A DNA stretch of 64,000 nt. Source: Oscillospiraceae bacterium. Lineage in GTDB: Bacteria; Bacillota; Clostridia; Oscillospirales; Oscillospiraceae. The stretch is from NCBI GenBank assembly GCA_902787755.1, contig CADAHL010000005.1, positions 19,524 to 83,523 of the forward strand. Direction: 5' to 3'. Numbering within the stretch: position 1 is the first letter of the stretch; each line of letters begins with the position of its first letter. The position numbers and the translations under genes were made by a program. The notes beneath the pieces were generated by a model. It was not told the origin of the DNA. It saw only the letters and a list, made by a program, of their open reading frames with translations, and did not search any database. Below, in pieces: positions 1 to 15,794 of the stretch.

Positions 1-485
1 TCCAGCGGGATGGCGCAGACCTCCGCCAGGATTGCCTGGATCACCGAGGCATGGGCCGCCACGGCAATATCGCCTTCGCTGTTCTGCAGACAGCTCTCCA
101 GCGCCGGCATCACCCGCCGCCGCACCTGTTCCAGGGTTTCGGCGCCGGGAGGGACCAGCAGCGGCTCGGAGGACCGCCGGGCGTAGAGCTCCGGCCAGCC
201 CTCCCGGATCCGGGTAAAGTCCAGCCCGTCCCAGGGACCCATGTCCTGCTCGGCCAGGGCGTCCACCGTCACGAGGGGCAGCCCCAGCGGGGCGGCGGTC
301 TGGCGGCAGCGGGTCAGGGGGCTGGAAAACACCGTCCTCAGCCCGGCACCGGACAGGGCCCGGCCCAGCAGGCAGGCCTGCATCCGTCCCAGAGGCCCCA
401 GGGGGGTGTCGGTCCGGCCCAGGCACATGTGGGTGCCCAGCGGGAAATCCGGGTGGGCATGGCGGATCAGATAGAGTTTACGCAT
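1..485 (-). CDS. Histidine phosphatase (phosphoglycerate mutase/CobC-like) family protein, C-terminus runs off the window
   Basis: Not in the ORF track because it is open at the window edge. The reverse complement from ATG 485..483 reads MRKLYLIRHAHPDFPLGTHMCLGRTDTPLGPLGRMQACLLGRALSGAGLRTVFSSPLTRCRQTA. The RHA..G start motif and the S-P-L-x-R-C-x-Q-T motif are typical of the family. Its start overlaps the upstream stop (TGATG). Confidence 0.6.
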   Translation of the reverse strand, partial: MRKLYLIRHAHPDFPLGTHMCLGRTDTPLGPLGRMQACLLGRALSGAGLRTVFSSPLTRCRQTAAPLGLPLVTVDALAEQDMGPWDGLDFTRIREGWPELYARRSSEPLLVPPGAETLEQVRRRVMPALESCLQNSEGDIAVAAHASVIQAILAEVCAIPL

Positions 486-1408
486 CAGAACAGTCCTTCA
501 AAATACTCTGGATAGAGGCGGGCGGCTTCCTCCCGCAGAGCGGCGCTGTAGGCCTCGTACCGGGCCAGCAGACGCTCGCCGTCCTCGGTCAGCTGACTTT
601 TTCCGCCGCCGGCGCCGCCCTGGCTGCGCCGGACCAGCGTCCGGTTCAGCTGGGACTCCAGGGTGCGGATCACGTTCCAGCCGCTGGAATAGCTCATCTG
701 CATGCGCTTGCAGGCGGTGCGGACCGAGGTGGTCTCCTCCACCAGCCGCAGCAGCATGGCGGTCCGGGCGTCGAAGAAGACCTTCTCCCGGGACAGGGAG
801 ATGCTGAGCACCGGGCGCACCAGATGTTCGTTGTGATAGGCCAGCAGGGCCCGGTAGTCCTCCGGGGTGTCCGCATCATGCAGAATCCCCCGATCCTCCA
901 CCGGGATCCGGCTCATTTCCACCCCGCAGCGCTCCAGCGCGCCGCGCAGCCCGTCCCGGCCGTCGTCGGCCAGAATCCCATCGATCAGCTCGCTTGCGAT
1001 CAGGGTCGGGTGCCCGGACACGCCCCCGCAGACGGGGCAGGCCAGCTTCGCGGAGCTGTCCAGCAGCGCCTGCACGGTGGCGGCGGTAAACAGCGGGATA
1101 TCCACCGGCGTGAAGATCACCCGGTCGCATTTGTCCCGCAGATAGCTCAGACCGATCCGGGCCGAGTCGAACATCTGGGTGGTCTCGTAATTTTCGTTGC
1201 GCAGGAAAACGATCCCGTTGCCGGCCAGGTGCCGCTCCAGGGTGGTGGCGTTGTAACCCGTGACCATCACGATCCGGTCGATCCCCGCCTGCTGGAAGGT
1301 GGCCACCACCCGCTGGGCGATGGAGATGGAGCCGATGTTGAGCATGGGCTTGAAGTCTCCCATCCGGGAAGACATTCCCGCCGCCACGATCAGCGCGCCG
1401 GTGGTCAT
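485..1408 (-). CDS. MobA/MocA-type molybdenum cofactor nucleotidyltransferase fused to a C-terminal ModE-N/LysR-like winged HTH
   Basis: ORF 485..1618 trimmed to ATG 1408 (MTTGALIVAAGMSSRMGDFKPML). GGGAGG lies about 7 nt upstream, and an ATGA overlap joins it to the gene at 1405..2163. The AAGxSxRMG motif marks the NTP transferase. The C-terminal part (SVRTACKRMQMSYSSGWNVIRTLESQLN..GGAGGGKSQLTEDGERLL) resembles the ModE N-terminal HTH. Confidence 0.85.
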   Translation of the reverse strand: MTTGALIVAAGMSSRMGDFKPMLNIGSISIAQRVVATFQQAGIDRIVMVTGYNATTLERHLAGNGIVFLRNENYETTQMFDSARIGLSYLRDKCDRVIFTPVDIPLFTAATVQALLDSSAKLACPVCGGVSGHPTLIASELIDGILADDGRDGLRGALERCGVEMSRIPVEDRGILHDADTPEDYRALLAYHNEHLVRPVLSISLSREKVFFDARTAMLLRLVEETTSVRTACKRMQMSYSSGWNVIRTLESQLNRTLVRRSQGGAGGGKSQLTEDGERLLARYEAYSAALREEAARLYPEYFEGLF

Positions 1409-2163
1409 GGCTCCGCCTCCCTTCCCTTCACCGGAAAGAACGGGCAGCCGCGCCCGATGCACTCCCGGTTTTGACCCATATAGGTACAGCGGACCTCCGC
1501 CTCCGGCATGTCCACGCCAAAGAGCTCCGCGGTGAACAAAACCGCCTCGTGGATGCACAGGCGGCTGCTGCGCTTGCAGCAGCGGGGGCCGCCCACCTGG
1601 GCGATCCGGTTCAGGCATCGGGCCACCAGACGCTGAGGGATAGGCCAGGCATTCTCGTTGACCGGGTCAGAGCCGGTGAGCACGCTCATATAGATCCCCG
1701 CCCCGGCGGCTGCGCCGCAGACGCCCCAGTAGCCGCAAGCGCCCCCGGGCACCTGGCGGCCGCGCTTCAGCGCCGCGGACAGATCCTCCTTCAGATCGTT
1801 GCCGCCCCCGCAGTTGTGGAAGGCGGTGAGCAGCACGCAGGGTACGATGGCGTGGTGCTCCGGCCCGTGCATGTGGACCTGGGGCAGGGCCATCACCTGT
1901 TCCAGCAGCGTCTGGGGGCATTTCTCGCCGCTCTGCAGCAAGAAGGGGATGAAAAAGGCGTCCAGGCCCGCGCTGTGGCAGGCGTCGCAGACAAAGTGCC
2001 CGTCCTCGCAGGCGCAGGAGGAGAGCTTCTCCTCCCCGCAGACCGCGCAGCGCCGCGGCCTGGCCGTTTTCTCATAGCGCAGGGGCTTTCCGCAGAGCAT
2101 GCAGCCGCTGGATTTTCCCACAAAGGGCTGGACCTTTTCGCCTTCACAACAACATTCCGCCAA
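1405..2163 (-). CDS. Cys-rich protein with an N-terminal double-CxxC zinc ribbon and a C-terminal HGPEHH / CGYWGVCGAAAGAG domain (DUF5714-like, from memory)
   Basis: 252 aa ORF with good GC3 bias. Motifs seen: CMLCG..CAVCG..CACEDGHFVCDACH, HMHGPEHH and GACGYWGVCGAAAGAG. It is translationally coupled to the MocA-like gene. Confidence 0.7.
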   Translation of the reverse strand: MAECCCEGEKVQPFVGKSSGCMLCGKPLRYEKTARPRRCAVCGEEKLSSCACEDGHFVCDACHSAGLDAFFIPFLLQSGEKCPQTLLEQVMALPQVHMHGPEHHAIVPCVLLTAFHNCGGGNDLKEDLSAALKRGRQVPGGACGYWGVCGAAAGAGIYMSVLTGSDPVNENAWPIPQRLVARCLNRIAQVGGPRCCKRSSRLCIHEAVLFTAELFGVDMPEAEVRCTYMGQNRECIGRGCPFFPVKGREAEP

Positions 2164-2364
2164 CGTTTGTCACCGGCCTTTCTGTATCATGATCGTCCCA
2201 TGGCAAAATCAATCGAGGCTTCTTCCGAGCGTTCGCGCGGGGATCATTGTTACTATGGAACCAGTATAGCGGATTTGTTTTTGTTTGTAAATCGGAAAAG
2301 GCGTGATTTTGCGTGACCTTTGGGCGGGAGTATGGTAGGATAAAGAAAAAAGGAGGGGCGAGGC

Positions 2365-3318
2365 ATGGAGGTCTATGTCTGGGGCACCGGCTGCGGCGCC
2401 GGGGATCTGATGGATCAGGCGCTGCCGGCGAAAAAGGTGGCGGCTTTCGTGGACAGTCGGCCGGTGGGGGAGCTTTTTCTGGGCAGACCGGTGATCCCGC
2501 CGGAGGAGCTGGCCCGGCGGGACTATGACCTGGTGATCGTCACCAGCCGGCAGGCGGAGGAGATCGCCGAGCGCTGTCAGACGCTGGGGATCGCCCCGGA
2601 AAAGCTGCTGTTTTTGAAAAACCACGCGATACTGCAGGATCGGAACCGCAGCTACGCCCTGGCGGAAGAAGCCCTGGGCGCGCTGTTTGTCGAGAAGCTG
2701 CGGCAGTCCCAGCGGCTGATCCGCGCGCCGCGCTGGTCTGAGGCGGAGCGCCTCCCGCCCGCAGAGCTGGACAACGATTATGTCAGGCTGAAGAGCCTGG
2801 AGGCGATCTGCCGAAGGCTGGGACCGGTGCCGGGCGCCGCGGCGGAGCTGGGCGTGTACCGGGGGAGCTTTGCCGCCTGCATCAACGCCCTTCTGCCGGA
2901 CCGGCGGCTCTATCTGTTCGATACTTTCCGGGGCTTCGATCCGAAAGAGGCGGAGGCTTACGGCCGGGGCTTTGTGGACGCCCACCGGAACACAACGGAA
3001 GACCGGGTCCGGGCAAGGCTGCCCCATCCGGAAAAGGCGGTATTCCGACCGGGCCTGTTCCCGGACAGCGCGGCGGGCCTGGAGGAGCGCTTTGCGCTGG
3101 TGTCCCTGGACGTGGATCTGGAGGAGAGCAGCTATCAGGGGCTGCACTGGTTTCTGCCCCGCCTGAATCCGGGGGGCTTTCTGCTGCTGCACGACTACGG
3201 CAATCCGGATCTGCCGGGGGTCAGAGCGGCGCTAGCGCGCTATGAGCGGGAGGCCGGCCTCCGGCTGCCCGCCGTCCCCCTGTGTGACGTGAACGGGACT
3301 CTGGTGATCTGCGGATAG
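2365..3318 (+). CDS. TylF/MycF-like class I SAM-dependent O-methyltransferase with an N-terminal Rossmann-like extension
   Basis: 317 aa with AGGAGGGG upstream of the ATG. The C-terminal half (ELGVYRGSFAACINALLPDRRLYLFDTFRGF...VSLDVDLEESSYQGLHWFLPRLNPGGFLLLHDY) matches macrocin-O-methyltransferase-type proteins. Confidence 0.8.
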   Translation: MEVYVWGTGCGAGDLMDQALPAKKVAAFVDSRPVGELFLGRPVIPPEELARRDYDLVIVTSRQAEEIAERCQTLGIAPEKLLFLKNHAILQDRNRSYALAEEALGALFVEKLRQSQRLIRAPRWSEAERLPPAELDNDYVRLKSLEAICRRLGPVPGAAAELGVYRGSFAACINALLPDRRLYLFDTFRGFDPKEAEAYGRGFVDAHRNTTEDRVRARLPHPEKAVFRPGLFPDSAAGLEERFALVSLDVDLEESSYQGLHWFLPRLNPGGFLLLHDYGNPDLPGVRAALARYEREAGLRLPAVPLCDVNGTLVICG

Positions 3319-3360
3319 GGCGCAGGTTAAACGCTTTTAATTATCAAAAGTATCCAAAAA

Positions 3361-3391
3361 GCAGTTCGCAGATTCTGCGAATTGCTTTTTG
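3361..3391. terminator. Rho-independent terminator after the TylF-like methyltransferase gene
   Basis: GCAGTTCGCAG-ATT-CTGCGAATTGC forms an 11 bp stem with one G-U pair. It is flanked by AAAAA and TTTTTG and lies inside an AT-rich island. Confidence 0.75.
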
Positions 3392-3398
3392 TTATAAG

Positions 3399-3428
3399 TT
3401 GAAACTTCCAATTCTTGAAGCGTAAAAT
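3399..3428 (+). promoter_or_regulatory. Candidate sigma-A promoter of the mop operon
   Basis: TTGAAA (3399-3404), an 18 nt spacer, then TAAAAT (3423-3428). It lies in the only AT-rich stretch upstream of 3478. Confidence 0.4.
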
Positions 3429-3477
3429 TGAATTGTAAAAGGGGCACTATCGCCTCCGGCACTGGGAGGAAGACAAA

Positions 3478-3735
3478 ATGGATGAGGAACTGTTTGAGAT
3501 CGTGGCGGACAGCATCACCGTGGAGGTGACCGACCGGAACACCGGGAAGGTCTTTCGCCGGGAGCTGCCCATCGACTTCTATGAGAACGCCAATTTTCTG
3601 CGCCTGAGCGGCGAAAATATGGACGGCAGCGTCTCCCAGCTGGTGTTCTACACCCCCCGGGGGATCGAGCGGGTGAAGGATATCACCGGCAAGGGCCCGG
3701 ACCACGACCGCTGCGGCGGCCACGGACATTCCTGA
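3478..3735 (+). CDS. Small hypothetical protein (85 aa) with a C-terminal CGGHGHS; first gene of the mop operon
   Basis: GGGAGGAAG lies 8 nt upstream of the ATG. Third-position GC bias is strong. I recognise no family. Confidence 0.55.
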   Translation: MDEELFEIVADSITVEVTDRNTGKVFRRELPIDFYENANFLRLSGENMDGSVSQLVFYTPRGIERVKDITGKGPDHDRCGGHGHS

Positions 3736-3791
3736 GCGCAAACCCAAACGAGGGTCGTAACATACACGAATATATAAGAGGAGGAAAAAAC

Positions 3792-6551
3792 ATGATCAAA
3801 AAGACACTTGTGATCAACGGTGTCAGCCGGAACCTGGTCCTGGACAAGGACGAGACCCTGGCCAAGGTCCTGCGTGAGCATCTGCTGCTGACCGGCTGCA
3901 AGATCGGATGCGGCGAGGGCCACTGCGGCGCCTGCAACGTCATCATGAACGGCAAGGTCACCAAGTCCTGCATCGTGAAGATGAGCAGAGTTCCCGACAA
4001 TGCCGAGATCACCACCATCGAGGGCGTGGGCACCCTCAGCGATATGCATCCCCTGCAGGTGGCCTGGATGGCCCACGGCTGCGCCCAGTGCGGCTTCTGC
4101 ACCCCGGGCTTCATCATCAGCGCCAAGGTCCTGCTGGAGAACAATCCCAATCCCACCCGGGAAGAGGTCCGCGACTGGTTCAACAAGCAGCGCAACCTGT
4201 GCCGCTGCACCGGCTACAAGCCGCTGATCGACGCGGTGATGGACGCCGCCGCGGTGCTGCGGGGTGAGATGACCAAGGAGGACCTGGTCTTCAAGCCCAC
4301 CGGTGACAGCATCAAGGGCACCAAGTACATCCGTCCCTCCGCCGCCCAGAAGGTCACCGGCACCTGGGACTTCGGCGCCGACGACGCGCTGAAGATGCCC
4401 GGCTGCCTGCGCCTGGCCCTGACCCAGGCCAAGGTCTCCCATGCCAACATCAAGTCCATCGACACCTCCGAGGCCGAGAAGATGCCCGGCGTGGTGAAGG
4501 TCATCACCTACAAGGACATCCTGGCCGCCGGCGGCACCAACCAGATCAACGGTCTGGTCATGCTGCCCAAGCACAACAAGACCGACGGCTTTGAGCGCCC
4601 GGTCCTGTGCTCCGACAAGATCTTCCAGTTCGGCGACGCCATCGCCATCGTGGCCGCCGACACCGAGGAGCATGCCCGGGCCGCCGCCGACGCGGTGAAG
4701 GTGGAGATCGAGGAGCTGCCCGCCTACATGAGCGCCCTGGACGCCATGGCCCCCGACGCCATCGAGATCCATCCCGGCATCCCCAACGTGTTCTATGAGA
4801 CCAACTGCATCAAGGGACCCGACTTCGACTGGGATTCCATCCCCGACGAGCAGCAGGTGGAGATCGAGAGCTACTGTTCCCGTCAGCCCCACCTGCATCT
4901 GGAGCCCGACTGCGGCTACGGCTACATCGATGAGGACGGCATGGTCACCGTGCATTCCAAGTCCATCGGCATCCATCTGCACATGCCCATGATCGCCGCC
5001 GGTATCGGCGTGCCCATGGAGAAGCTGCGCCTGGTCCAGAACCACGCCGGCGGCACCTTCGGCTACAAGTTCTCTCCCACCAACGAGGCCCTCATCGGCG
5101 CCGCCGTCAAGATCCTGGGCGTGCCGGTGTCTCTGAACTTCACCCAGTTCCAGAATATCACCTACACCGGCAAGCGTTCTCCCGCCTTCATGCACATCCG
5201 CCTGGCTGCGGACAAGGACGGCAAGCTGCTGGCCATGTGGGGCGACAACTATGTGGACCACGGCCCGTACTCTGAGTTCGGCGATCTGCTGACCATGCGT
5301 CTGAGCCAGTTCACCGGCGCCGGCTACGGCATCCCCTCCATCCGCAACAAGAGCCAGACGGTGTTCACCAACCACGCCTGGGGCTCCGCCTTCCGGGCCT
5401 ACGGCTCTCCCCAGTCCTTCATGGGCTCCGAGATCGCCATCGACTGCCTGGCCGCCAAGATGGGCATCGATCCCTTTGAGATGCGCGCCCGCAACTGCTA
5501 CAAGGCCGCCGAGCATACCACCATCCCCACCGGCTACGAACCCGACGTGTACTGCGAGGAAGCCCTGTTCGAGAAGGCCCGTCCGCTGTACGAGGCCGGC
5601 AAGAAGAGAGTGGCCGAGAAGAACGCCGCCTCCGACGGCCGCTTCAAGTATGGCATCGGCGTGTCCCTGGGCGTTTACGGCTGCGGCCTGGACGGTGTTG
5701 ACGCCTCCTCCGCCAAGGCCGAGCTGAATCCCGACGGCACCGTTACCATCTACGTCTCCTGGGAGGATCACGGACAGGGCGCCGACATGGGCGCGCTGGT
5801 CTCCGCCCATGAGACCCTGCGCCAGGCCGGCATCAAGCCCGAGCAGATCCGCCTGGTGATGAACGACACCAAGTACACGCCCAACTCCGGTCCTGCCGGC
5901 GGTTCCCGCAGCCAGGTCATGAGCGGCAACGCCTGCCGCCTGGCAGCCGAGGCTCTGGTGGCCGAGATGAAGAAGGACGACGGGACCTTCCGCACCTACG
6001 AGGAAATGGTCGCCGACGGCAAGAAGCTGCTGGTGGAGGGCAACTGGGTCACCACCTACTGCGCCGATCACCCGGTGGATCAGGACACGGCTCAGGGCGA
6101 GCCCTTTGCCACCTATATGTACACCATCTTCCTGCCCGAGGTCTGCGTGGACACCAAGACCGGCAAGGTGAAGGTGGAGAAGTTCACCTGCGTGGCCGAC
6201 GTGGGCACCATCATGAACAAGCTGCTGGTGGACGGCAACTTCTACGGCGGCCTGGTCCAGGGCATCGGCCTGGCCCTCACCGAGGACTTCGAGGATCTGA
6301 GCAAGCACACCAGCCTGATGCGCTGCGGCATCCTCTATCCCAACGACGTTCCCGATGACATCGAGCTGCACTTCAACGAGACCTACCGTCCCAACGGCCC
6401 CTACGGCGCCGCCGGCTGCGGCGAGGCCCCGCTGGATGCGCCGCACCCGGCTATCCTGAACGCCATCTACAACGCCACCGGCGCCCGCATCACCCGCATC
6501 CCGGCCCGTCCGGAGCGCGTGCTGGAGGCCCTGAAGGCTCTGGAGAAATAA
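3792..6551 (+). CDS. mop: Molybdopterin-dependent aldehyde oxidoreductase, MOP type (two [2Fe-2S] domains fused to the MoCo subunit, no FAD domain)
   Basis: 919 aa with AGGAGG upstream. The protein is collinear with my memory of Desulfovibrio gigas MOP (907 aa). Matching segments include CGEGHCGACNV, TIEGVG, CAQCGFCTPGFI, CRCTGYKPLIDAV, AKVSHANIKSIDTSEA, GGTFGYKF, YSEFGDLLT, WEDHGQGAD and PNSGPAGGSR. Confidence 0.92.
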   Translation: MIKKTLVINGVSRNLVLDKDETLAKVLREHLLLTGCKIGCGEGHCGACNVIMNGKVTKSCIVKMSRVPDNAEITTIEGVGTLSDMHPLQVAWMAHGCAQCGFCTPGFIISAKVLLENNPNPTREEVRDWFNKQRNLCRCTGYKPLIDAVMDAAAVLRGEMTKEDLVFKPTGDSIKGTKYIRPSAAQKVTGTWDFGADDALKMPGCLRLALTQAKVSHANIKSIDTSEAEKMPGVVKVITYKDILAAGGTNQINGLVMLPKHNKTDGFERPVLCSDKIFQFGDAIAIVAADTEEHARAAADAVKVEIEELPAYMSALDAMAPDAIEIHPGIPNVFYETNCIKGPDFDWDSIPDEQQVEIESYCSRQPHLHLEPDCGYGYIDEDGMVTVHSKSIGIHLHMPMIAAGIGVPMEKLRLVQNHAGGTFGYKFSPTNEALIGAAVKILGVPVSLNFTQFQNITYTGKRSPAFMHIRLAADKDGKLLAMWGDNYVDHGPYSEFGDLLTMRLSQFTGAGYGIPSIRNKSQTVFTNHAWGSAFRAYGSPQSFMGSEIAIDCLAAKMGIDPFEMRARNCYKAAEHTTIPTGYEPDVYCEEALFEKARPLYEAGKKRVAEKNAASDGRFKYGIGVSLGVYGCGLDGVDASSAKAELNPDGTVTIYVSWEDHGQGADMGALVSAHETLRQAGIKPEQIRLVMNDTKYTPNSGPAGGSRSQVMSGNACRLAAEALVAEMKKDDGTFRTYEEMVADGKKLLVEGNWVTTYCADHPVDQDTAQGEPFATYMYTIFLPEVCVDTKTGKVKVEKFTCVADVGTIMNKLLVDGNFYGGLVQGIGLALTEDFEDLSKHTSLMRCGILYPNDVPDDIELHFNETYRPNGPYGAAGCGEAPLDAPHPAILNAIYNATGARITRIPARPERVLEALKALEK

Positions 6552-6584
6552 GTCCTTTCAAAGTATTTGCACCAATGGTATAAT

Positions 6585-6618
6585 GGGGATGCGGCTGATG
6601 CCGCATCCCCAGTTTTTC
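6585..6618 (+). terminator. Intra-operon terminator-like hairpin between mop and the Fe-S gene
   Basis: GGGGATGCGGC-TGAT-GCCGCATCCCC forms an 11 bp perfect stem followed by AGTTTTTC. It lies 34 nt after the mop stop. Confidence 0.6.
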
Positions 6619-6635
6619 AAACGGGAGGGAGGAAC

Positions 6636-8930
6636 ATGGCGCAGATCCGGGAGCGGGGCTCCACCCATGTGTATAAGGTCAACAAGATCTCCCGGGAGGA
6701 GATCGAGGGCATGGTTTCGCTGTGTGTATACGAGCAGCCGCCCTTCTGCAACGCCGCCTGTCCGCTGAAGCTGGACACCCGGGCCTTTCTGGAGGCTGCC
6801 GCCGCCGGGAATTTCAAGAAGGCTCTGCAGCTGTACGAGAAGATCGCCCCCTTCCCCCTGGTCCTGGCCCGGGGCTGTGAAGCGCCCTGCGAGGGGAAAT
6901 GCCGTCTGGGCGAGGTGGGCGACGCGGTGGCGATCCGGGCGGTGGAGGAGGCCGTGGCCCGCTATGGAGAGGCCTCCCGGGGCGGAAGTATCTTCCGCAC
7001 CAAAAAGAAAAAGACCGTTGCCGTCCTCGGCTCCGATCTGTTCTGCCTGTTTCTGGCCGGAGAGCTGGAGAAGAAGGCCTATCCCGTGACGGTGTTCTGC
7101 CCGGAGCCGGACGCGGAGAGCTTTCTGCGCAGCATGGCGGGCTTCCTGGACGATGGGGCCTTCCGGCTGGAGCTCAGGCGCCTGAAGAGCAAGGACATCC
7201 AATTCGAATACAACAGCCCGGTCACCCGGGAAAGCTATGAGCGGATCCGGGGCGGGTTCGACGTGGTCTGCGCCTCGGAGCCTGTGGCAAAGAGCCTGTT
7301 TCCGGCGGCGGACTGTCTGCCGGAGCTGATGTACTGGGAAGCGGAGAACCTGGTCATGGGCCGGGGCGAGGGCGTGATGGACGCGGCCTTCGGCGCCAAG
7401 AAGGCCGCCCTGACCGTGGACCGGCTGGCCCAGGGCCTGGATCCCCGGAACACCCGGGGCCAGGAGGGGCCGGTGGAGACCCGGCTGTACACCGACCTGT
7501 CGGCGGCCGTCCGGCTGCAGAGGGAACCCGTTCCCCCGGAGGGCTACACGAAGGAGCAGGCGGTGGGGGAGGCCGGGCGCTGCCTGCGCTGCCGCTGCGA
7601 AGAGTGCCTGAAAAGCTGCGCGTATCTGCGGCATTACAAAAAGCATCCCGGCCTGCTGGCCAGGGAGATCTATAACAACACCCAGATCATCATGGGCGAC
7701 CACCAGCTCAACAAGCCCATGAACAGCTGCTCCCTCTGCGGACAGTGCACTGTGGTCTGCCCCAACGGCTTCGACATGGCCCGTGTGTGCCATCTCGCCC
7801 GGCAAAATATGGTCTCTACCGACAAAATGCCCCTGGCGCCTCATGAATTTGCGCTGATGGACATGCTCTTTTCCAACGGCGACGCCTTTCTGTGCCGGCC
7901 CCAGCCGGGCTTTGAGACCTGCCGTTACGTCTTCTTCCCCGGCTGCCAGGCCTCGGCCATCGCCCCGGAGACGGTGAAGGCCGCCTATCTGGACCTGTGC
8001 CGTCGGCTGGAGGGCGGCGTGGGCCTGATGCTGGGCTGCTGCGGCGCCATCTGCGACTGGGCCGGGCGGACGGAGCTGGAGGAGCAGACCCGGGAATTTC
8101 TGGACCGGGAGCTGAGCCGGCTGGGGAATCCCATTGTGATCGCCGGCTGCCCAACCTGTAAAAAGGAACTGAGCCGGCATGAGGGCCTTCGGACCGTCGG
8201 GATCTGGGAGCTGCTGCTGCAGCTGGGGCTGCCGGAGGGCGGGCGCGGGCTGGATCGTCCCGCCGCCCTGCACGATTCCTGCGGCGCCCGGGGCGACCCG
8301 GAGACACAGAAGGCCATCCGGACCCTGGCGGCCCGACTGGGCTGCGAGCTGGTGGAGACCCCGGATTCCGGGGACCGATCCCCCTGCTGCGGCTACGGCG
8401 GCCTTGCCGCCTACGCCAACCCCGAGGTGGCCGGGGAGATGACCGCGTCCTGCCTGGAGCGCTCGGACGCGCCCTATATCTCCTATTGCATGGCCTGTCG
8501 GGACCGCTTTGCCCGGCAGGGGCACGAGTCCCGGCACATTCTGGAGCTGGTCTACGGGACCGACGCCGGCGCGCCGCCGGATATCAGCGAAAAGCGCCGG
8601 AACCGGCTGAATCTGAAAAATGAACTGCTGTGGGAGCTTTGGCAGGAGGAGACGGCGGAGATGAAGCTGGAGTTTGAACTGAAGTATACCGAGGAAGCCC
8701 GGCAGATGATGGACGAGCGGATGATCCTCACCGACGACGTGATCGCCGTGCTGGAGGACTTTCGCCGGACCGGCGAGGCGATCCTGGACGGCGAGGACGG
8801 ACTGCTGGTGGCCCGCTGCCGGGTGGGCAACGCCACCTTCTGGGTCAAATTCACCCGGGACGGGGAGGACGCCTATACGGTGCACCGGGCCTACAGTCAC
8901 CGGATGCAGGTGGTAAAACGGGAGGGCTGA
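6636..8930 (+). CDS. Multidomain Fe-S oxidoreductase: GltD-like N-terminal Fe-S module, degenerate dinucleotide-binding segment, 2x[4Fe-4S] ferredoxin and two CCG (HdrD/GlcF-like) domains
   Basis: ORF 6567..8930 trimmed to ATG 6636, with GGGAGGGAGG 5 nt upstream; the longer form would run through a terminator-like hairpin. Motifs seen: CNAACPLK..GCEAPCEGKC, CLRCRCEECLKSC..CSLCGQCTVVCP, FFPGCQ..GCCGA and HDSCG..SPCCGYGG. Confidence 0.85.
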   Translation: MAQIRERGSTHVYKVNKISREEIEGMVSLCVYEQPPFCNAACPLKLDTRAFLEAAAAGNFKKALQLYEKIAPFPLVLARGCEAPCEGKCRLGEVGDAVAIRAVEEAVARYGEASRGGSIFRTKKKKTVAVLGSDLFCLFLAGELEKKAYPVTVFCPEPDAESFLRSMAGFLDDGAFRLELRRLKSKDIQFEYNSPVTRESYERIRGGFDVVCASEPVAKSLFPAADCLPELMYWEAENLVMGRGEGVMDAAFGAKKAALTVDRLAQGLDPRNTRGQEGPVETRLYTDLSAAVRLQREPVPPEGYTKEQAVGEAGRCLRCRCEECLKSCAYLRHYKKHPGLLAREIYNNTQIIMGDHQLNKPMNSCSLCGQCTVVCPNGFDMARVCHLARQNMVSTDKMPLAPHEFALMDMLFSNGDAFLCRPQPGFETCRYVFFPGCQASAIAPETVKAAYLDLCRRLEGGVGLMLGCCGAICDWAGRTELEEQTREFLDRELSRLGNPIVIAGCPTCKKELSRHEGLRTVGIWELLLQLGLPEGGRGLDRPAALHDSCGARGDPETQKAIRTLAARLGCELVETPDSGDRSPCCGYGGLAAYANPEVAGEMTASCLERSDAPYISYCMACRDRFARQGHESRHILELVYGTDAGAPPDISEKRRNRLNLKNELLWELWQEETAEMKLEFELKYTEEARQMMDERMILTDDVIAVLEDFRRTGEAILDGEDGLLVARCRVGNATFWVKFTRDGEDAYTVHRAYSHRMQVVKREG

Positions 8931-8933
8931 ACC

Positions 8934-9155
8934 ATGGCTGTGGAGAAAAACTACTATACCATCGATCCCCAGGGCAAGCTCAGCTGCCTGAAATGCGGGG
9001 TGCCGCTGGTAAAGGGCAAGGCCAAATTCATGTACCTGGACAACGGTTTTCCCGTGGAACTGCCGGTCTGCCCGGTCTGCGGCTTTGTCTATGTGCCGGA
9101 GGAGCTGGCCCTTGGGAAAGTGGCGTCCGTGGAGCGGGCGCTGGAGGACAAGTGA
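8934..9155 (+). CDS. Small 4-Cys zinc-ribbon/rubredoxin-like protein (73 aa)
   Basis: Motifs CLKCG...CPVCG. It starts 3 nt after the previous stop. From memory it corresponds to the DVU_1557 family redox protein. Confidence 0.75.
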   Translation: MAVEKNYYTIDPQGKLSCLKCGVPLVKGKAKFMYLDNGFPVELPVCPVCGFVYVPEELALGKVASVERALEDK

Positions 9156-9664
9156 ACGGCCATCCCGGCGGCGAGGAGAACACCCGCCGCATGCTCGCCC
9201 TGGCCGAATTGCCCGAGGGGGCGCGGCTCCTGGATCTGGGCGCCGGGGCGGGGGAGACGCTGGCCCTTCTGCGGGGGCTGGGCTTCCGGGCGGAGGGTCT
9301 GGACCTCAGCCCTCGGTCCCCGCTGGTGGACAAGGGGGATCTGCTGCATACGCCCTACCCCGACGGCAGCTTTGACGGAGTGCTCAGTCAGTGCGCCTTC
9401 TTTGCCTCGGGCGACGTGCCCGGCGCGCTGCGGGAGGCCCACCGGCTGCTCCGGCCCGGCGGGAAGCTGCTGCTGTCGGATGTGTTTTTTCAGGCTCCGG
9501 AGGCGCTGCTGAACGGGGCCGGCTTCTCGCTTCTCCGGGCCGAGAATATGACGGCGGCCTGGCGGGAGTATATTCTGGAAGCGCTGTGGCGGGAGGATGT
9601 GCCGTGCTGCACCATCCCCCGGGGCAGATGCGGCTATTGGCTGCTCATCGGGGAAAGGAGATAG
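9152..9664 (+). CDS. Class I SAM-dependent methyltransferase
   Basis: ORF 8993..9664 trimmed to GTG 9152, which overlaps the upstream stop as GTGA. ATG 9191 is an alternative start. Motif I is LLDLGAGAGE, followed by RPGGKLLLSD. Confidence 0.8.
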   Translation: MNGHPGGEENTRRMLALAELPEGARLLDLGAGAGETLALLRGLGFRAEGLDLSPRSPLVDKGDLLHTPYPDGSFDGVLSQCAFFASGDVPGALREAHRLLRPGGKLLLSDVFFQAPEALLNGAGFSLLRAENMTAAWREYILEALWREDVPCCTIPRGRCGYWLLIGERR

Positions 9665-9666
9665 AA

Positions 9667-10092
9667 ATGGATCTGTTTGACAGGATCATGGAGCTGAGCC
9701 GCTATGGGTATTTCTGCGGCCAGATCCTGGCGATCCTCATGCTGGAGACCGTGGGGGAGGAGAATCCGGGCCTGGTGAAGGCCATGGGAGGACTGAACGG
9801 CGGCGTGGGCTTTTCCCAGAACTGCTGCGGCTGCATGACCGGCGGAGCCTGCGTGATCTCATATTTTACCGGCAAGGGCGAGGACACGGGGATGGACTCC
9901 CCGGAGCACAAGCCCGCCCTGGGCGAGTTCACCCGCTGGTTTGAGGATGAGATCACCGCCGATTACGGCGGCATCGACTGCCGGGATATCACCCGGGGCA
10001 ATCCGGCCAGGCGGGTGGAGTGCTGCCCCCAGATCATTGCCGCCACCTATGAAAAATGCATGGAAATTCTGACGGAGCGTGAACTGCTGTGA
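9667..10092 (+). CDS. C_GCAxxG_C_C family putative redox-active protein
   Basis: ORF 9391..10092 trimmed to ATG 9667 (GGAAAGGAG upstream). Motifs seen: YFCGQILA, NCCGCMTGGACV and ECCPQII. Confidence 0.8.
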   Translation: MDLFDRIMELSRYGYFCGQILAILMLETVGEENPGLVKAMGGLNGGVGFSQNCCGCMTGGACVISYFTGKGEDTGMDSPEHKPALGEFTRWFEDEITADYGGIDCRDITRGNPARRVECCPQIIAATYEKCMEILTERELL

Positions 10093-11411
10093 TCATTGGG
10101 AGAACAGAGAGTGTCTGCCCGGTCTGCCTGCGGGTGCTGCCCGCGGAGATCTGCCCGGGAACAGACGGCGTCTATATGGAAAAGTCCTGCCCGGAGCACG
10201 GGGACTTCCGTTCCCTGATCTGGGAGGGAGATCTGCGCTCCTATCTCCGGTGGGCCACGAAGAACAGCGCGGCGGAAGCGCCGAAGGACCCCAAGCCCTG
10301 CAGCCGGGGCTGCCCCTATGACTGTGGCCTGTGCGGGGAGCACCGGACAAAAGGCTGCTGCGTGCTGCTGGAGCTGACAAAACGCTGCAATCTGCGCTGC
10401 CCGGTGTGTTTTGCTTCGGCGGGCGAGACCGGGGACGGCGATCCGAGCCTGGGGCAGATCGCGGCCCAGTACCAATACCTGATGGACCACGGCGGCCCCT
10501 TCAACATCCAGCTGTCCGGCGGCGAACCCACCGTCCGGGACGATCTGCCGGAGATCATCGCGCTGGGGCGGGAGAAGGGCTTCTCCTTCTTTCAGCTGAA
10601 CACCAACGGCCTGCGTCTGGCCTCCGAGCCCGGCTATGCCCGCAGCCTGAAGGAGGCGGGGCTGAGTACGGTGTTTCTCCAGTTTGATGCCGTCAGCGAC
10701 CCGGTGTACGAGATCCTTCGGGGCCGGCGGCTGCTGGCGGAGAAGGAGCGGGCCATCGAGGCCTGCGCCGAGGCCGGACTGGGGATCGTGCTGGTGCCGG
10801 TGATCGCGGCCGGGGTCAATGAGGACCAGGTGGGGCCGATCCTGCGTTACGCGCTGGAGAGGATGCCGGCGGTGCGGGGCGTGCATTTTCAACCGCTGAG
10901 CTATTTCGGCCGCTGCGGCCTGGCTCGGCCCGACAGGCCCGTGACCATCCCCAAAATGCTCCGCCTGATCGAGGAGCAGACCGGAGGCCGGATGTGCGCC
11001 TCCGATTTTGGCGGCGGCGGGGCGGAGAATCCCTATTGCTCCTTCCATGCTAGTTACCTGAAAAAGACCGACGGCAGCCTGAAAGCGCTCAAGCGCAAGT
11101 CCGACAGCGGCTGCTGCTGTGTCAGCTCCGACGACTCCCGCCAGGCCGTCGCCAACCAATGGTCCGGTGAAGCGGAGGAATTTGCCGGTGACGGGGAATT
11201 TCTGGAGACCTCCTCCCTGGACGCCTTTCTGGAGCAGGCGAGGAAGAATACCTTTGCCGTATCCGGCATGGTGTTTCAGGACGCCTGGAACCTGGATCTG
11301 AAGCGCCTGCGGCGCTGCTATATCTGCGAGATGGACCCGGAGCACGGCATGGTGCCGTTCTGCGCCTACAACTTGACCGATACGGAAGGGAGAGCGCTGT
11401 ACCGAAGATGA
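10089..11411 (+). CDS. Radical SAM enzyme with an N-terminal zinc ribbon
   Basis: GTG start overlaps the upstream stop (GTGA). The zinc ribbon is CPVC..CPEHGDF. The CxxxCxxC motif is CNLRCPVC, followed by SGGEPT. A Cys-rich patch SGCCCVSS is present. I saw no SPASM-type C-terminal cluster motif. Confidence 0.9.
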   Translation: MIIGRTESVCPVCLRVLPAEICPGTDGVYMEKSCPEHGDFRSLIWEGDLRSYLRWATKNSAAEAPKDPKPCSRGCPYDCGLCGEHRTKGCCVLLELTKRCNLRCPVCFASAGETGDGDPSLGQIAAQYQYLMDHGGPFNIQLSGGEPTVRDDLPEIIALGREKGFSFFQLNTNGLRLASEPGYARSLKEAGLSTVFLQFDAVSDPVYEILRGRRLLAEKERAIEACAEAGLGIVLVPVIAAGVNEDQVGPILRYALERMPAVRGVHFQPLSYFGRCGLARPDRPVTIPKMLRLIEEQTGGRMCASDFGGGGAENPYCSFHASYLKKTDGSLKALKRKSDSGCCCVSSDDSRQAVANQWSGEAEEFAGDGEFLETSSLDAFLEQARKNTFAVSGMVFQDAWNLDLKRLRRCYICEMDPEHGMVPFCAYNLTDTEGRALYRR

Positions 11412-12628
11412 AGATCTCACGCCTGGATGCGCTCATCATGGAGCAGGAGCAGGTCAATACCCTGGACCGGGAAACGATAGAGGCGATTCAGCTGGCAAAG
11501 CTGAACCGCCTTCTTGCGCGGGAAAGGGAGCGCGGCGGCTTTTACCGCGGTCTGCCGGAACGGCTGGATTCCCTGGCGGAGCTGGGGAGCCTGCCCTTCA
11601 CCACAGAGGCGGATCTGGCCCGGTCAGCTCCCGGGATGCTGCTGATCTCCCAGAGCCGGATCCGGCGGATCATTTCCGAGACCACCTCCGGCACCACCGG
11701 CACTGCCAAGCGGGTGTTCTATACCGACGGGGATCTGGAAAACACCGTCCGGCTCTATATGGCCGGGCTTGGGGAACTGATCTTCCCCGGCAGCAGAACC
11801 ATGATCTGCTTTCCCTTTTCCGGCCCCCATGGCCTGGGCGAGCTGATCGCGGAGGCCGTGACACGGCTGGGCGCCCGGCCGCTGAAGCTGGGCCCATCCC
11901 TGAGCTATGGGGAATATGCCGCCATCCTGGAGCGGGAGCAGCCGGATACCTTTGTGGGGATGCCGGGGCAGCTGCTGTCTCTGCTTCGGGCCTGCGGCAG
12001 GGGAAGCCTCCGCCGGGCGCTGGTCAGCGGCGACGCCTGTCCGGACAGCGTGATATCGGGATGCGAGCGAATCCTGGGCTCCCGGCTGTTCCCCCACTAC
12101 GGTTCCCGGGAGATGGGCATGGCCGGGGCGGTCACCTGCCCGGCCCATGAGGGGATGCATCTCAGAGAAAACCACGTGATCCCGGAGATTGTGGACGAGA
12201 CAGGCCAGGTCCTGCCCCGGGGAGAGTGGGGCGAGCTGGTCATCACCACCGTGGGCATGGAGGCCCTGCCGCTGATCCGCTACCGCACCGGTGACGTGAC
12301 CCGGATCCTGCCGGAGCCCTGCCCCTGCGGGAGTGCGACGATCCGGCTGGACCGTCTCCGCCGCCGGGCGGGAAATCGGATCGAGGAGCTGGACGAAGCC
12401 CTGTTTGCCCTGCCGGAGCTGGTGGACTATACCGCTCGGCTGGAGGGCGGTGTGCTGCGGATCCGGGGCCTGACGGCGGGCCCATACCCGACCGAGAAGA
12501 TCCAAAACCGGGCGGAGGGGATATTCCCCGGCGTTGGGATCCGGGTCGAGCTCTCCCCTGTTCGACCGGAGGACCGGCCGCTGAATCCCGGGAAGAGGAT
12601 CCTGGGCGGGATGGAGCAGTTTTCCTGA
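11408..12628 (+). CDS. PaaK / coenzyme F390 synthetase-like adenylate-forming ligase
   Basis: ATGA overlap with the radical SAM gene. The AMP-binding motif is SETTSGTTGTAKRV, followed by YGSREMG and YRTGD. Confidence 0.9.
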   Translation: MKISRLDALIMEQEQVNTLDRETIEAIQLAKLNRLLARERERGGFYRGLPERLDSLAELGSLPFTTEADLARSAPGMLLISQSRIRRIISETTSGTTGTAKRVFYTDGDLENTVRLYMAGLGELIFPGSRTMICFPFSGPHGLGELIAEAVTRLGARPLKLGPSLSYGEYAAILEREQPDTFVGMPGQLLSLLRACGRGSLRRALVSGDACPDSVISGCERILGSRLFPHYGSREMGMAGAVTCPAHEGMHLRENHVIPEIVDETGQVLPRGEWGELVITTVGMEALPLIRYRTGDVTRILPEPCPCGSATIRLDRLRRRAGNRIEELDEALFALPELVDYTARLEGGVLRIRGLTAGPYPTEKIQNRAEGIFPGVGIRVELSPVRPEDRPLNPGKRILGGMEQFS

Positions 12629-12642
12629 TACCCGATTTTATG

Positions 12643-12688
12643 CCAAACGGAAGAAGGCGCGGCTCCGGCCGCGCCTTCTTCCGTTTGG
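12643..12688. terminator. Bidirectional terminator between the ligase gene (+) and the aldose epimerase gene (-)
   Basis: CCAAACGGAAGAAGGCGCGGC / GCCGCGCCTTCTTCCGTTTGG is a long, near-perfect inverted repeat. Confidence 0.85.
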
Positions 12689-12696
12689 GAGGGGCA

Positions 12697-13572
12697 TTAT
12701 CGGTGAAATTCGATGCTGTAGGAGATTGCTTTCGTCTCTCCGGGCTCCAGCCGCTGCTCGCAGACCTTCTCCGAGATCTCGCCGGTGAAGCCCTCGTCGT
12801 CTGTGCGGCCGCACCAGGGCTCCAGACATACAAAAGGTCCTTCAGCCTTGGCCCAGACCGCCAGGATGGGGAAGTCCTCACAGCGCAGGGTCACCCAGGG
12901 TGTTTTGTCGGGGCGGACCAGCTGCACCGCCGGGACCTGGCGATCCTCGAAGATCCAGGTCTCGGGCAGGGTAGCGCCGTAAGGGGTCAGACCCTCCCGA
13001 AGCGCCAGCTCGCGGATCGTGCCCGGAACGGCAAAGCCCGCCGGGTCGGCGCTGATGTAGCGCAGGGTCTGATTTCCGGGAAAGCCCAGGAGCAGCTCTT
13101 CCTTTTTCACGCCCTCCGGGGGCAGAAAGCCCGGATGCCCGCCGATGGCATAGAACATGGTCCGGTCCCCGGTATTGGTCACCTCCCAGCCCACGTGCAG
13201 CAGCCGGGGGTTCCGGCTGTCCAGCCGGTGGCGCACCAGGAGGCGGAAATCGAAGGGGTAGCGGCGGAGAGTCTCCCCGGTGGACGTGAGCACCTGCGCC
13301 ACACGGCCGTCGGTCTCCTCGGTGCAGACAAAGTCCAGATCCCGGGCAAAGCCGTGCTGGGTCTTCATCTCATACTCCCGACCCTCCAGCCGGTATTTGC
13401 CGTCCAGGACCTTGCCCACGAAGGGGAAAAGAATGGGGGCGTGCCGGTTCCACACCGCGGGATCGGCGCTCCAGAGCCGTTCGCAGCGGGCCTGCTTGTC
13501 CCAGACCCGGCTCAGCTCGGCGCCGCGGTCGGCGATCTCCAGGCGCAGGACTTCATTTTCCAGAATATGCAT
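12697..13572 (-). CDS. Aldose 1-epimerase (galactose mutarotase-like) family protein
   Basis: 291 aa. Family-typical segments are APILFPFVGKV..G.Y, QHGFARD and GGHPGF. Confidence 0.9.
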   Translation of the reverse strand: MHILENEVLRLEIADRGAELSRVWDKQARCERLWSADPAVWNRHAPILFPFVGKVLDGKYRLEGREYEMKTQHGFARDLDFVCTEETDGRVAQVLTSTGETLRRYPFDFRLLVRHRLDSRNPRLLHVGWEVTNTGDRTMFYAIGGHPGFLPPEGVKKEELLLGFPGNQTLRYISADPAGFAVPGTIRELALREGLTPYGATLPETWIFEDRQVPAVQLVRPDKTPWVTLRCEDFPILAVWAKAEGPFVCLEPWCGRTDDEGFTGEISEKVCEQRLEPGETKAISYSIEFHR

Positions 13573-13813
13573 GGCAAGCTCTCCTTGTTCGTTTTTCTTT
13601 CCGGGGAGTCCGGCCCTCCGGGCGGGACTTTTCCCCGCCGGCGCCGGACTCCAGCCTCAGTATACCGCAAAAGCCGCCGGAAGGATACAGAAATTTCTGG
13701 GGTTTGACGCCCCCAGTCAGTGATCGCTCCGCGCCTCAGCGACCGATCCTGAGAAAAGTGGCGGTTACTCAGAAGGGAGAACCGAGAAAAAACTGGTGTT
13801 CCGGCCATGGGTC

Positions 13814-15706: not shown

Positions 15707-15794
15707 AGCCTCACCTCCTGTCTCCGGCTCCAGTATAGCCCGCCTGCGGGGAATACGCAAACAGTTTTTCCGGAGATGCGGCAGGGAAAAGCCC

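Follow-up and report, generated by a model that had tools for sequence, protein, structure and literature searches.

The 64,000-nucleotide stretch of DNA analysed here (hereafter the window; contig CADAHL010000005.1 of assembly GCA_902787755.1, positions 19,524 to 83,523 of the forward strand), from an Oscillospiraceae bacterium, carries at its left end a compact gene cassette organized around MOP, an aldehyde oxidoreductase that is a textbook molybdoenzyme and is accompanied by about ten travelling genes with no assigned chemistry. An earlier description made from the letters alone (the sequence-only reading) had noted such a set of accessory genes and knew of no biochemistry assigned to them, which appears still to be true. 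On the minus strand the cassette comprises the beginning of a histidine phosphatase (H), a nucleoside triphosphate (NTP) transferase with a helix–turn–helix (HTH) domain (N) and a Cys-rich DUF5714 protein (D), while the plus strand encodes the small protein p85, MOP, the Fe–S protein X, the 4-Cys protein z, an S-adenosylmethionine (SAM) methyltransferase (M), a C-GCAxxG-C-C protein (C), the radical SAM protein TrsS (T) and an adenylate-forming ligase (L). The list of open reading frames (ORFs), the junction sequences and folding place the genes from N to L, their overlaps and the terminator where the sequence-only reading had put them, and the NCBI family names that it gave are real and were all matched in an NCBIfam profile search of the window proteins. 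The features are collected in Table 1.

Table 1. Features of the MOP cassette in the window (positions are those of the window).
Feature	Position	Strand	Basis
H, truncated histidine phosphatase, His_Phos_1 N-terminal part	3..485	-	Translation; the window edge cuts the gene
N, MocA-like NTP transferase with ModE/LysR-type HTH	485..1408	-	NTP_transf_3 and HTH profiles
D, Cys-rich DUF5714 protein	1405..2163	-	PF18978, 203 bits
TylF-type SAM methyltransferase	2365..3318	+	Pfam match
Promoter-like site 5' of p85-MOP: TTGAAA, 18-nt spacer, TAAAAT	3399..3428	+	Consensus scan only
p85, 85 aa ending in CGGHGHS	3478..3735	+	ORF; no Pfam or NCBIfam family
MOP, aldehyde oxidoreductase, 919 aa	3792..6551	+	NF045668, 1509.2 bits
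Promoter-like site (6557-6584) overlapping a terminator-like hairpin (6584-6611)	6557..6611	+	Consensus scan, folding
X, Fe-S/CCG protein, 764 aa	6636..8930	+	NF045663 diclust_near_Sec, 797 bits
z, 4-Cys protein, 73 aa	8934..9155	+	NF045645, DVU_1557 family / DUF7479
M, class-I SAM methyltransferase, 170 aa	9152..9664	+	NF045667, DVU_1556 family, short form
C, C-GCAxxG-C-C protein	9667..10092	+	NF045669, DVU_1555 family
T, TrsS radical SAM protein, 440 aa	10089..11411	+	NF045646, 594.5 bits
L, PaaK-like adenylate-forming ligase	11408..12628	+	NF045666, DVU_1553 family, 330.6 bits
Bidirectional terminator, 21-bp perfect stem	12643..12688	.	ΔG -49.4 kcal/mol, z-score -8.0

Packing within the cassette is tight, with ATGA junctions at 1405–1408 (N/D) and 11408 (T/L), GTGA junctions at 9152 (z/M) and 10089 (C/T), intergenic gaps of 3 nt (X/z) and 2 nt (M/C), and a 1 nt overlap between the start of H and the stop of N. 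The cassette extends past the left edge of the window: H belongs to it and is cut by that edge, and the boundary formerly drawn at position 485 has to be given up. On the other side, the stem at 12643–12688 is shared with a convergent gene (12697–13572, minus strand) and marks the right border of the cassette.

MOP scored 1509.2 bits in the profile search against NF045668 (cutoff 1100) and displays the Pfam domains Fer2, Fer2_2, Ald_Xan_dh_C, MoCoBD_1 and MoCoBD_2, with two [2Fe-2S] domains and no FAD domain. It matches over its full length the enzymes of Desulfovibrio desulfuricans (PDB 1dgj, 1150 bits) and D. gigas (1sij, 1112 bits), its residues 1–916 aligning with residues 1–907 of the latter, so that the collinearity which the sequence-only reading had noted is borne out; its domain order is also that of D. 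gigas MOP and D. desulfuricans MOD, which likewise lack an FAD domain. By homology, MOP would oxidize aldehydes to carboxylic acids at a molybdenum centre carrying molybdopterin cytosine dinucleotide (MCD), with the electrons passing via the two [2Fe-2S] clusters.

The neighbourhood of MOP and TrsS, which is widespread among anaerobes and recurs in hundreds of them, is already catalogued in NCBIfam (NF045645, NF045646, NF045648, NF045663, NF045664 and NF045665–NF045669) and has reportedly been described by Haft & Tolstoy (2025); the same families are found here in the same order, with the window copies of MOP, X, z, C, T and L above the curated cutoffs and M, a short form, below its own. The window is an all-Cys member of this cassette, every cassette protein being free of selenocysteine (Sec), and differs from the catalogued arrangement in its rearranged N/HD/phosphatase block, where N carries a ModE-type HTH and not an HD domain and the HD domain resides on the phosphatase, in a D that is short and Sec-free by comparison with MbdU, and in p85 and the TylF-type methyltransferase, which are extras restricted to its lineage. 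As far as could be checked, what is additional here are the gene fusions, the terminator/promoter boundary behind MOP, the hierarchy of association, a variant locus (L076), the C-terminal LEDK sequence of z and the placement of a large clade of bacterial homologues of the tetraether synthase Tes in this molybdoenzyme cassette.

Conservation of the arrangement was assessed from three anchors. For TrsS, an alignment of 22 diverse sequences, taken as a subset since a 37-sequence alignment was too diverse for the search pattern, was run against one genome per species and returned at least 597 relatives, of which the best 80 loci were kept; iterated hidden Markov models built from the window proteins were applied to six-frame ORFs of these loci, and the 55 with enough flank were counted. 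With X as anchor, metagenome contigs yielded at least 558 relatives, and 80 contigs were examined; p85 provided seven places in close relatives. The X- and p85-anchored samples serve as partial substitutes for a MOP-anchored sample across phyla.

Around TrsS (n = 55), MOP was present in 51 loci, X in 52, z in 51, M in 50, C in 51 and L in 50, in the order MOP-X-z-M-C-T-L, often continued by XdhC-N-H; the NTP transferase was found in 41 of these loci, XdhC in 39, the phosphatase in 31, p85 in 18, a NifS-like enzyme in eight and DUF5714 in six. MOP lay directly upstream of X in 47 of 48 X-anchored loci, and downstream came z (32/32), C (31/32), M (30/32), T (29/32) and L (27/31). All seven p85-anchored places read p85-MOP-X-z-M-C-L, with TrsS between C and L in one; T and D were missing in cis in six of the seven. 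The loci belong to several classes of Bacillota and to Desulfobacterota, Nitrospirota, Acidobacteriota, Spirochaetota and Chloroflexota, together with one alphaproteobacterium and one actinomycete, and the core MOP-X-z-M-C-T-L was found from all three anchors in at least eight phyla, as expected of the single functional module that had been postulated across distant phyla. Chance cannot account for an arrangement that recurs in about 160 independent loci. The converse picture, in which the accessory families would occur mostly without MOP, fails because they overwhelmingly adjoin a MOP orthologue. In the supplement of a D. vulgaris proteomics study, entries for DVU_1551–DVU_1558 were not found, and the main texts mention DVU_1559 only.

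The association is graded. MOP-X-z is never broken, and one locus (L165) has these three genes only; M and C come next, in loci without T and L (L149 and L159), and T and L follow, while the XdhC-N-H block may be adjacent or remote. Such a gradation fits a set of stoichiometric parts (MOP, X, z and C) served by catalytic helpers. Lone TrsS genes were found in Oscillospiraceae (L012 and L015), which fits the T-less operons of that family. Extras that recur beside the core include XdhC, a MoCF-domain protein, the NifS-like enzyme with a small protein termed s93, ModABC, MoeA, sigma-54 activators of the AcoR/PrdR type and AdhE or an iron-dependent alcohol dehydrogenase (Fe-ADH); a conserved organic-substrate transporter or acyl-CoA-processing gene near the cassette was not found in the loci examined. 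Between C and T, loci of Sporomusa, Terrisporobacter and Lachnospiraceae carry XdhC, N, the NifS-like gene and s93, and operons such as L081–L083 keep M-C-L together with X-z while N, H and XdhC are absent from the surrounding 10 kb. At L076 (4289–8569), z-M-C-T-L are preceded by a FAD subunit of the XdhB type and an 809-aa protein in which a [2Fe-2S] domain is fused to a formate dehydrogenase (FDH)/PhsA-like enzyme of the bis-molybdopterin guanine dinucleotide (bis-MGD) type. These replace MOP and X; the stand-alone 105-aa protein that comes after them matches the last 87 positions of the X profile only, and XdhC, the NTP transferase and the phosphatase were not found within 10 kb. This gene set suggests that what M, C, T and L go with is z and the C-terminal domain of X, and not MCD or the xanthine-oxidase fold.

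A further division within the cassette is provided by its transcription signals. The plus-strand genes between 3478 and 12628, previously taken as one operon, are probably organized in more than one transcription unit, with p85-MOP and X...L likely to be separate because a terminator-like hairpin and a promoter-like site lie between MOP and X. The hairpin (6584–6611; 12 bp, GC-rich, with a T-run; ΔG −28.2, z-score −5.6) is situated between the MOP stop at 6551 and the X start at 6636, and the overlapping promoter-like site (6557–6584), found by consensus scan, consists of TTCAAA, a 16-nt spacer and TATAAT with an upstream TG. A strong hairpin occurs within 50 nt of the MOP stop in 54 of 54 loci from many phyla (median ΔG −25.8 kcal/mol), preceded by TGnTA(T/C)AAT in at least 12 Oscillospiraceae and Lachnospiraceae loci, and the remaining plus-strand junctions from X to L are tight. 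The TylF gene has its own terminator hairpin at about 3355–3391 (ΔG −23.8, z-score −8.3). The cassette probably consists of at least three units and is not a single operon around MOP; p85 is likely to be co-transcribed with MOP. In Oscillospiraceae and Lachnospiraceae an extended −10 box, TGnTATAAT, abuts the 5′ arm of the hairpin, promoter and terminator overlapping there. An Rfam scan of positions 1–14000 (E ≤ 1) gave two chance-level matches only, and a molybdenum cofactor (Moco) riboswitch was not found.

X, the constant downstream neighbour of MOP, reached 797 bits against NF045663 (cutoff 530), with Pfam matches to Fer4_20, Fer4_17 and CCG. From the N-terminus, a DPD/GltD-type 2×[4Fe-4S] region is followed by a Rossmann remnant and a ferredoxin dicluster and then by two CCG motifs of the HdrB/HdrD type, and about 100 aa form a C-terminal domain. 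Both CX(n)CCGX(m)CXXC motifs are complete, with their Cys residues invariant in the alignment, and the GxGxxG dinucleotide motif reads GAGLSGLT in most members and is degenerate in the window (VLGSDLFCLF). X combines elements of HdrD/HdrB/DsrK with those of GltD/NfnB, from which it differs in holding the GltD-type 2×[4Fe-4S] region, the dinucleotide fold, the dicluster and the CCG pair in one soluble 760-aa polypeptide with an extra C-terminal domain, and in the loss of the FAD motif in the lineage of the window. Clostridium ljungdahlii has two tandem MOP-X-z-C sets, the first of which is induced on syngas or H2/CO2, and X was proposed to be linked to an electron carrier through its CCG pair (Aklujkar et al., 2017; PMC5640608).

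The gene that always comes after X encodes z, a zinc-ribbon/rubredoxin-like protein with four Cys residues (92.5 bits against NF045645, cutoff 60). Its C-terminus is LEDK in 69 of 70 genome loci, in 115 of 120 database homologues and in 144 of 150 genes overall, across at least eight phyla, an ending that, as far as could be checked, had not been reported before. Among 17,901 six-frame segments of the first 80 loci and the window, this ending was unique to z (70 segments), and the C-termini of all other cassette proteins are variable. The codons of the motif and the stop vary synonymously (GAG 78 and GAA 72; GAC 88 and GAT 60; AAA 89 and AAG 61); since LEDK is conserved despite this variation, selection acts at the protein level on the very C-terminus of z. 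An embedded Shine–Dalgarno site for M was considered as the origin of the motif and rejected, as each of the four codons shows synonymous variation and LEDK is retained also where M is not the neighbouring gene.

TrsS, with 594.5 bits against NF045646 (cutoff 490) and matches to PF23545 and PF04055, is encoded in the window by an uninterrupted Cys-only ORF, a form for which the "(seleno)protein" name of the family leaves room. It displays an N-terminal Zn-ribbon, the motif CPxDCGLCxxH, CX3CX2C at C100/C104/C107 and a C-terminal Cys set, and residues C10/C13/C34(H37), C75/C79/C82(H85), C317, C410 and C425 are invariant or nearly so. The protein matches the archaeal enzyme GDGT-MAS/Tes (PDB 7tol) with 265 bits over residues 5–307 and again over residues 385–429, while residues 308–384 differ, with a shorter middle region and a variable Cys-Cys loop; against the Tes profile NF045702 it scores 333.1 bits, below the cutoff of 450. 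Common to TrsS and Tes/GDGT-MAS (MJ0619, 7tol) are the rubredoxin-like Zn-ribbon, a second cluster motif, CX3CX2C and MxFxDA...C...PFC, and judged by these matches TrsS is truly related to the archaeal tetraether synthase, in the Tes/GDGT-MAS clade. By analogy the two may also share their chemistry, in which an auxiliary cluster would trap a carbon radical, and they differ in that the context of TrsS is a molybdoenzyme and not lipid genes. A 2026 review contains a list in which TrsS and MbdU are given as selenoproteins from Haft & Tolstoy (2025, mSystems 10:e0141724) (PMC13188914).

The core match to GDGT-MAS/Tes, cluster motifs included, could be taken to mean that TrsS is the bacterial orthologue of Tes, making membrane-spanning lipids, and that its position beside MOP is incidental; indeed, 456 bacterial Tes homologues have been proposed as possible makers of glycerol dialkyl glycerol tetraethers of the branched type (brGDGTs; Zeng et al., 2022; PMC8941075). 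This is extremely improbable. The score of TrsS is below the Tes cutoff and above that of its own family, its residues 308–384 differ, MOP is near TrsS in almost every counted locus, TrsS is fused to other proteins of the cassette, and conserved lipid genes nearby were not found. Moreover, the bacterial enzyme for membrane-spanning lipids is Mss, and most of the producers have no Tes homologue (PMC13159169).

Fusions of TrsS were read among the best 150 of 615 clusters obtained at E ≤ 1e-30 in a phmmer search of 1.84 billion representative proteins. TrsS was found joined to the NTP transferase, with or without HD (P0122, P0132, P0183 and P0256), to DUF5714 (P0137, P0149, P0234 and, among the loci, L044), to a methyltransferase in either order (P0128, P0130, P0138, P0167 and P0247) and to the ligase (P0136, P0148, P0152, P0166, P0203, P0254 and P0258). 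The fusion at L044 (9968–12145) is a 725-aa protein of a Desulfosporosinus metagenome-assembled genome (MAG), which stands without MOP or X beside CbiM/CbiN-type metal transporter genes.

The ligase partner of these fusions is represented in the window by L, which scores 330.6 bits against NF045666 (cutoff 300) and resembles the PaaK structures 4r1l (E = 1e-31) and 2y27 (E = 1e-28). An enzyme of this kind invites a short catabolic route, one of the two possibilities raised by the sequence-only reading, in which MOP would convert an aldehyde to the acid, L would form the acyl-adenylate or acyl-CoA, and M and TrsS would tailor the substrate or product. The part of this proposal that stands is that L is a bona fide adenylate-forming enzyme, nearest to phenylacetate-CoA ligases, and the alcohol dehydrogenase (ADH) or AdhE genes and AcoR/PrdR-like sigma-54 activators that adjoin the cassette point to alcohol or aldehyde metabolism. 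The route nevertheless explains only one of about ten accessory genes, leaving X, z, M, C, T and D without a role, and the transporter, thiolase, acyl-CoA dehydrogenase or other downstream enzyme that it would call for was not found as a conserved neighbour. MOP-X-z and MOP-X-z-M-C variants exist without L, the L-TrsS fusions (seven clusters) tie L to the radical SAM step and not to MOP, and the same gene set accompanies an FDH-like enzyme at L076, all of which makes a catabolic route improbable.

Of the smaller accessory proteins, M reached 120.7 bits against NF045667 (cutoff 155), its 170 aa comparing with a 213-position profile, and occupies the same operon position as the family; its residues 61–115 match ArsM-type models around a conserved Cys. 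C (150.4 bits against NF045669, cutoff 103) has five conserved Cys residues and is a putative redox or thiol protein. D scored 135.9 bits against NF045648 MbdU (cutoff 600) over profile positions 38–267 and, with 252 aa against about 468 aa and no Sec, is by its matches a short Cys-only relative of this double selenoprotein and a member of DUF5714. C was also compared with DUF5714: BLASTP gave no match, and hhalign, with a probability of 14%, aligned the stretch G-x-CGA-x-x-G ... C only. Sequence searches of the PDB with D and C returned no match. Sec forms were sought in 167 loci through stops inside tblastn alignments, same-frame split high-scoring segment pairs and split ORFs, and none was found. 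In-frame stops do occur inside cassette genes of L101 (T), L093 and L088 (MOP) and L106 (X); three are TAG and one is TGA at a Gly position, and they look like sequencing errors or pseudogenes and not Sec codons.

These proteins could be seen as handling a soft element (As, Se, Te or Hg), with M, TrsS, MbdU/DUF5714, C and L carrying out metalloid, selenium or organometallic chemistry and MOP and X either supplying low-potential electrons or being protected from inhibition. The similarity of M to arsenite-methyltransferase models around its conserved Cys, the existence of selenoprotein forms in the TrsS, MbdU and C-GCAxxG-C-C families and the TrsS-DUF5714 fusion beside a CbiM/N-type metal transporter at L044 would be in keeping with such a function, which is even so very improbable: conserved resistance or uptake genes for As, Hg or Se were not found in about 160 loci, Sec forms were not found among these loci, and the ArsM similarity extends over only some 50 residues of a generic SAM fold.

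The minus-strand genes point to the cofactor of MOP. N is composed of a MocA-like NTP transferase domain (residues 4–195) and an HTH domain (residues 207–297). It scored 109 bits against TIGR03310 MocA (cutoff 186.45), 24 bits against MobA, 100 bits against PF12804 and 66 bits against ModE_repress, and is thus MocA-like, below the curated cutoff for MocA membership; against NF045665, the DVU_1551 family, it reached 198.8 bits (cutoff 315) over profile positions 2–196 of 359 only, with its HTH standing where the DVU_1551-type transferases of other phyla carry an HD domain. The link between a MocA-type transferase and MCD made by the sequence-only reading is plausible in that MocA is preferred to MobA and N travels with XdhC, but the score falls short of MocA proper. 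From this homology, N is likely to be an MCD-forming enzyme and possibly a regulator responsive to Mo or Moco. It is conceivable that its HTH makes N a cofactor-sensing regulator of the divergent mop genes.

H matches the CobC-type phosphatase profile TIGR03162 with 108 bits, below the cutoff, and in the TrsS-anchored sample the phosphatase is conserved beside the NTP transferase in 31 of 55 loci. In L084, the closest relative that shares the layout of the window, H is a 345-aa His_Phos_1+HD fusion (6064–7101), to the left of which lie an XdhC-family gene, modABC, MoaA and two MoCF-domain genes. Most phyla have NTP_transf_3+HD with a separate phosphatase, and the lineage of the window has NTP_transf_3+HTH with a phosphatase+HD fusion; from this domain swap it follows that the NTP_transf_3, HD and phosphatase domains always travel together. 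An XdhC gene was not found inside the window, and in window-type layouts (L084 and L002–L008) it lies directly left of the phosphatase. The XdhC-family member of the relatives matches NF045664, XdhC_rel_AOR, an "aldehyde oxidoreductase maturation factor", with 416 bits. For the NifS-like enzyme of some lineages the nearest family is EF2568/SclA, which sits in loci for selenium-dependent molybdenum hydroxylases; the two scores, 289 and 204 bits, fall short of the cutoff. Always 3′ of the NifS-like gene and just upstream of TrsS is s93, an unannotated 93-aa protein (MxFECKKxENCF...) with two conserved Cys residues and no NCBIfam family, which may be a sulfur or selenium acceptor (examples are L009:9711–9992, L028:9680–9964 and L026:9652–9966). 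By homology, the minus-strand genes belong to a block for cofactor supply and insertion, made up of N and the phosphatase/HD protein, that continues outside the window with XdhC, molybdate transport and Moco genes, as in the relatives. The cassette shares with Escherichia coli PaoABC (MocA and PaoD) and Rhodobacter capsulatus XdhC/NifS4 the encoding of a MocA-like transferase, an XdhC-family protein and sometimes a NifS-like enzyme together with a member of the xanthine-oxidase family; it differs in its many further helpers and in a transferase that never comes without HD and histidine-phosphatase domains, both absent from MocA.

From this block it is a short step to the other possibility raised by the sequence-only reading, that the accessory proteins mature the active site. 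TrsS, M, L, C and D, together with N/HD/phosphatase, XdhC and the NifS-like enzyme, would then build, modify or load the cofactor of MOP, possibly by adding a labile ligand of sulfur, selenium or carbon, or by modifying the dinucleotide, either of which purification in air would remove. The fusions of NTP_transf_3(+HD) with TrsS fit this proposal, as do the interleaving of XdhC, N, the NifS-like gene and s93 between C and T, the position of H after L in several lineages, the identity of the XdhC member as the NF045664 maturation factor, the proximity of the NifS-like enzyme to EF2568/SclA and the MoCF-domain protein that many loci encode directly upstream of MOP; the terminator after MOP would also suit strong expression of the structural gene, with the helpers behind it expressed less. 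On the other hand, L076 has z-M-C-T-L with a bis-MGD-type enzyme and without XdhC, N or H nearby, L081–L083 keep M-C-L and X-z without N, H and XdhC within 10 kb, and M-C-T-L probably share their transcription unit with X-z and not with MOP. In addition, the high-resolution MOP structures of D. gigas and D. desulfuricans (1vlb/1sij and 1dgj) reportedly show an ordinary MCD and no protein modification, while D. vulgaris, the namesake of these families, has the cassette. Maturation of the MOP cofactor by the whole set is, on balance, unlikely, and is the main competitor of the reading favoured here.

The reading that we favour, with a probability of roughly 0.45, is that the cassette encodes MOP, the supply and insertion of its MCD and an HdrD-like electron outlet made up of X and z, with M, C, T, L and D as accessories of this acceptor branch. 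Electrons would leave MOP through X, a multi-cluster Fe–S protein whose CCG motifs would mark a reductase site of the disulfide type or similar; z would work with X, with LEDK as a putative docking or attachment site; and M, C, TrsS, L and D would serve to produce or keep up a thiol-based group or cofactor carried by z, C or X. In such a scheme M, T, L and D would act catalytically, would be able to work in trans and would not be steps of aldehyde catabolism, and MOP and the accessory genes would be transcribed separately. The acceptor-branch reading is favoured because of the graded association, the boundary after MOP, the MOP-X-z-C sets of C. ljungdahlii, the L076 variant, the CCG motifs and the lack of conserved catabolic follow-up genes in the loci.

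Several points weigh against it. The direction of electron flow and the acceptor are deduced from domain content only, and the FAD motif of X is degenerate in the very lineage of the window. The absence of T and D in cis does not prove their presence in trans, and L076 is a single locus in one MAG. The AlphaFold2 models of z and p85, which come from shallow alignments (pLDDT 57.8), are too poor for testing structural analogy. Finally, the N-TrsS fusions (four clusters) and the placement of XdhC, N, the NifS-like gene and s93 between C and T point to a partnership of T and L with the Moco block and not with z and X.

A further reading would make z more than a rubredoxin-like electron carrier, namely a carrier protein of a new kind, whose LEDK lysine or terminal carboxylate would bear a prosthetic group installed by L, tailored by TrsS and M and cycled by X with electrons from MOP. 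By analogy with LipA, which acts on octanoyl-lysine, TrsS could effect this tailoring by C–S or C–C chemistry via its auxiliary cluster. The comparison with LysW/ArgW and with lipoyl- or biotinyl-lysine carriers, which is an analogy only, draws on the small Zn-ribbon of z, its conserved acidic C-terminus and the ligase and radical SAM enzyme alongside; z differs in ending in Lys and not Glu, and the ligase is of the ANL/PaaK type and not ATP-grasp or LplA. A conserved ATP-grasp gene was not found in the cassette loci examined. A carrier role for z is unlikely; if true, it would give anaerobes a swinging arm of the lipoyl kind reserved for the oxidation of aldehydes.

Two further genes are characteristic of the lineage of the window. 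For p85, profile searches found no match to Pfam or NCBIfam families, and its 705 homologues are all named hypothetical; a conserved motif, ...DLTG.GPD.D.CG.H, lies in the C-terminal tail, and p85 is predicted to be an all-β protein with a disordered Cys-Gly-x-His tail. The position directly upstream of MOP that p85 holds in the window is taken in many other loci by the 341-aa MoCF-domain protein. The TylF-type gene adjoins p85 in Oscillospiraceae and has another arrangement or orientation in Lachnospiraceae (L023, L041, L045 and L084–L087). Regarded earlier as unrelated, the TylF methyltransferase may belong after all, its recurrence beside p85 hinting at a lineage-specific member of the cassette that works together with p85.

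The genes to the right of the terminator are unrelated to the cassette and encode a HAD hydrolase, an Rv2578c-type radical SAM protein, a flavodoxin, ribosomal protein L1, DnaK and transporters. The second radical SAM gene (Rv2578c/PA0069 type; 14837–15796, minus strand) is unrelated to TrsS. The flavodoxin gene (15863–16357, minus strand; 195 bits against NF005501, cutoff 198) lies 3 kb to the right of the cassette. Flavodoxin is an in vitro electron acceptor for D. gigas MOP.

In the cell, MOP probably passes its electrons on to X and z and not to the flavodoxin of the in vitro work. A large clade of the bacterial 'Tes homologues' proposed for brGDGT synthesis sits in the MOP cassette, and Tes matches are therefore unfit as lipid biomarkers without a check of clade and context. 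The LEDK end of z and the TrsS fusions, in turn, offer starting points in the search for what a Tes-like radical SAM enzyme acts on outside lipid biology. Through its occurrence in gut Oscillospiraceae, Blautia, acetogens and sulfate reducers, the cassette bears on the turnover of alcohols and aldehydes in the habitats of these organisms.

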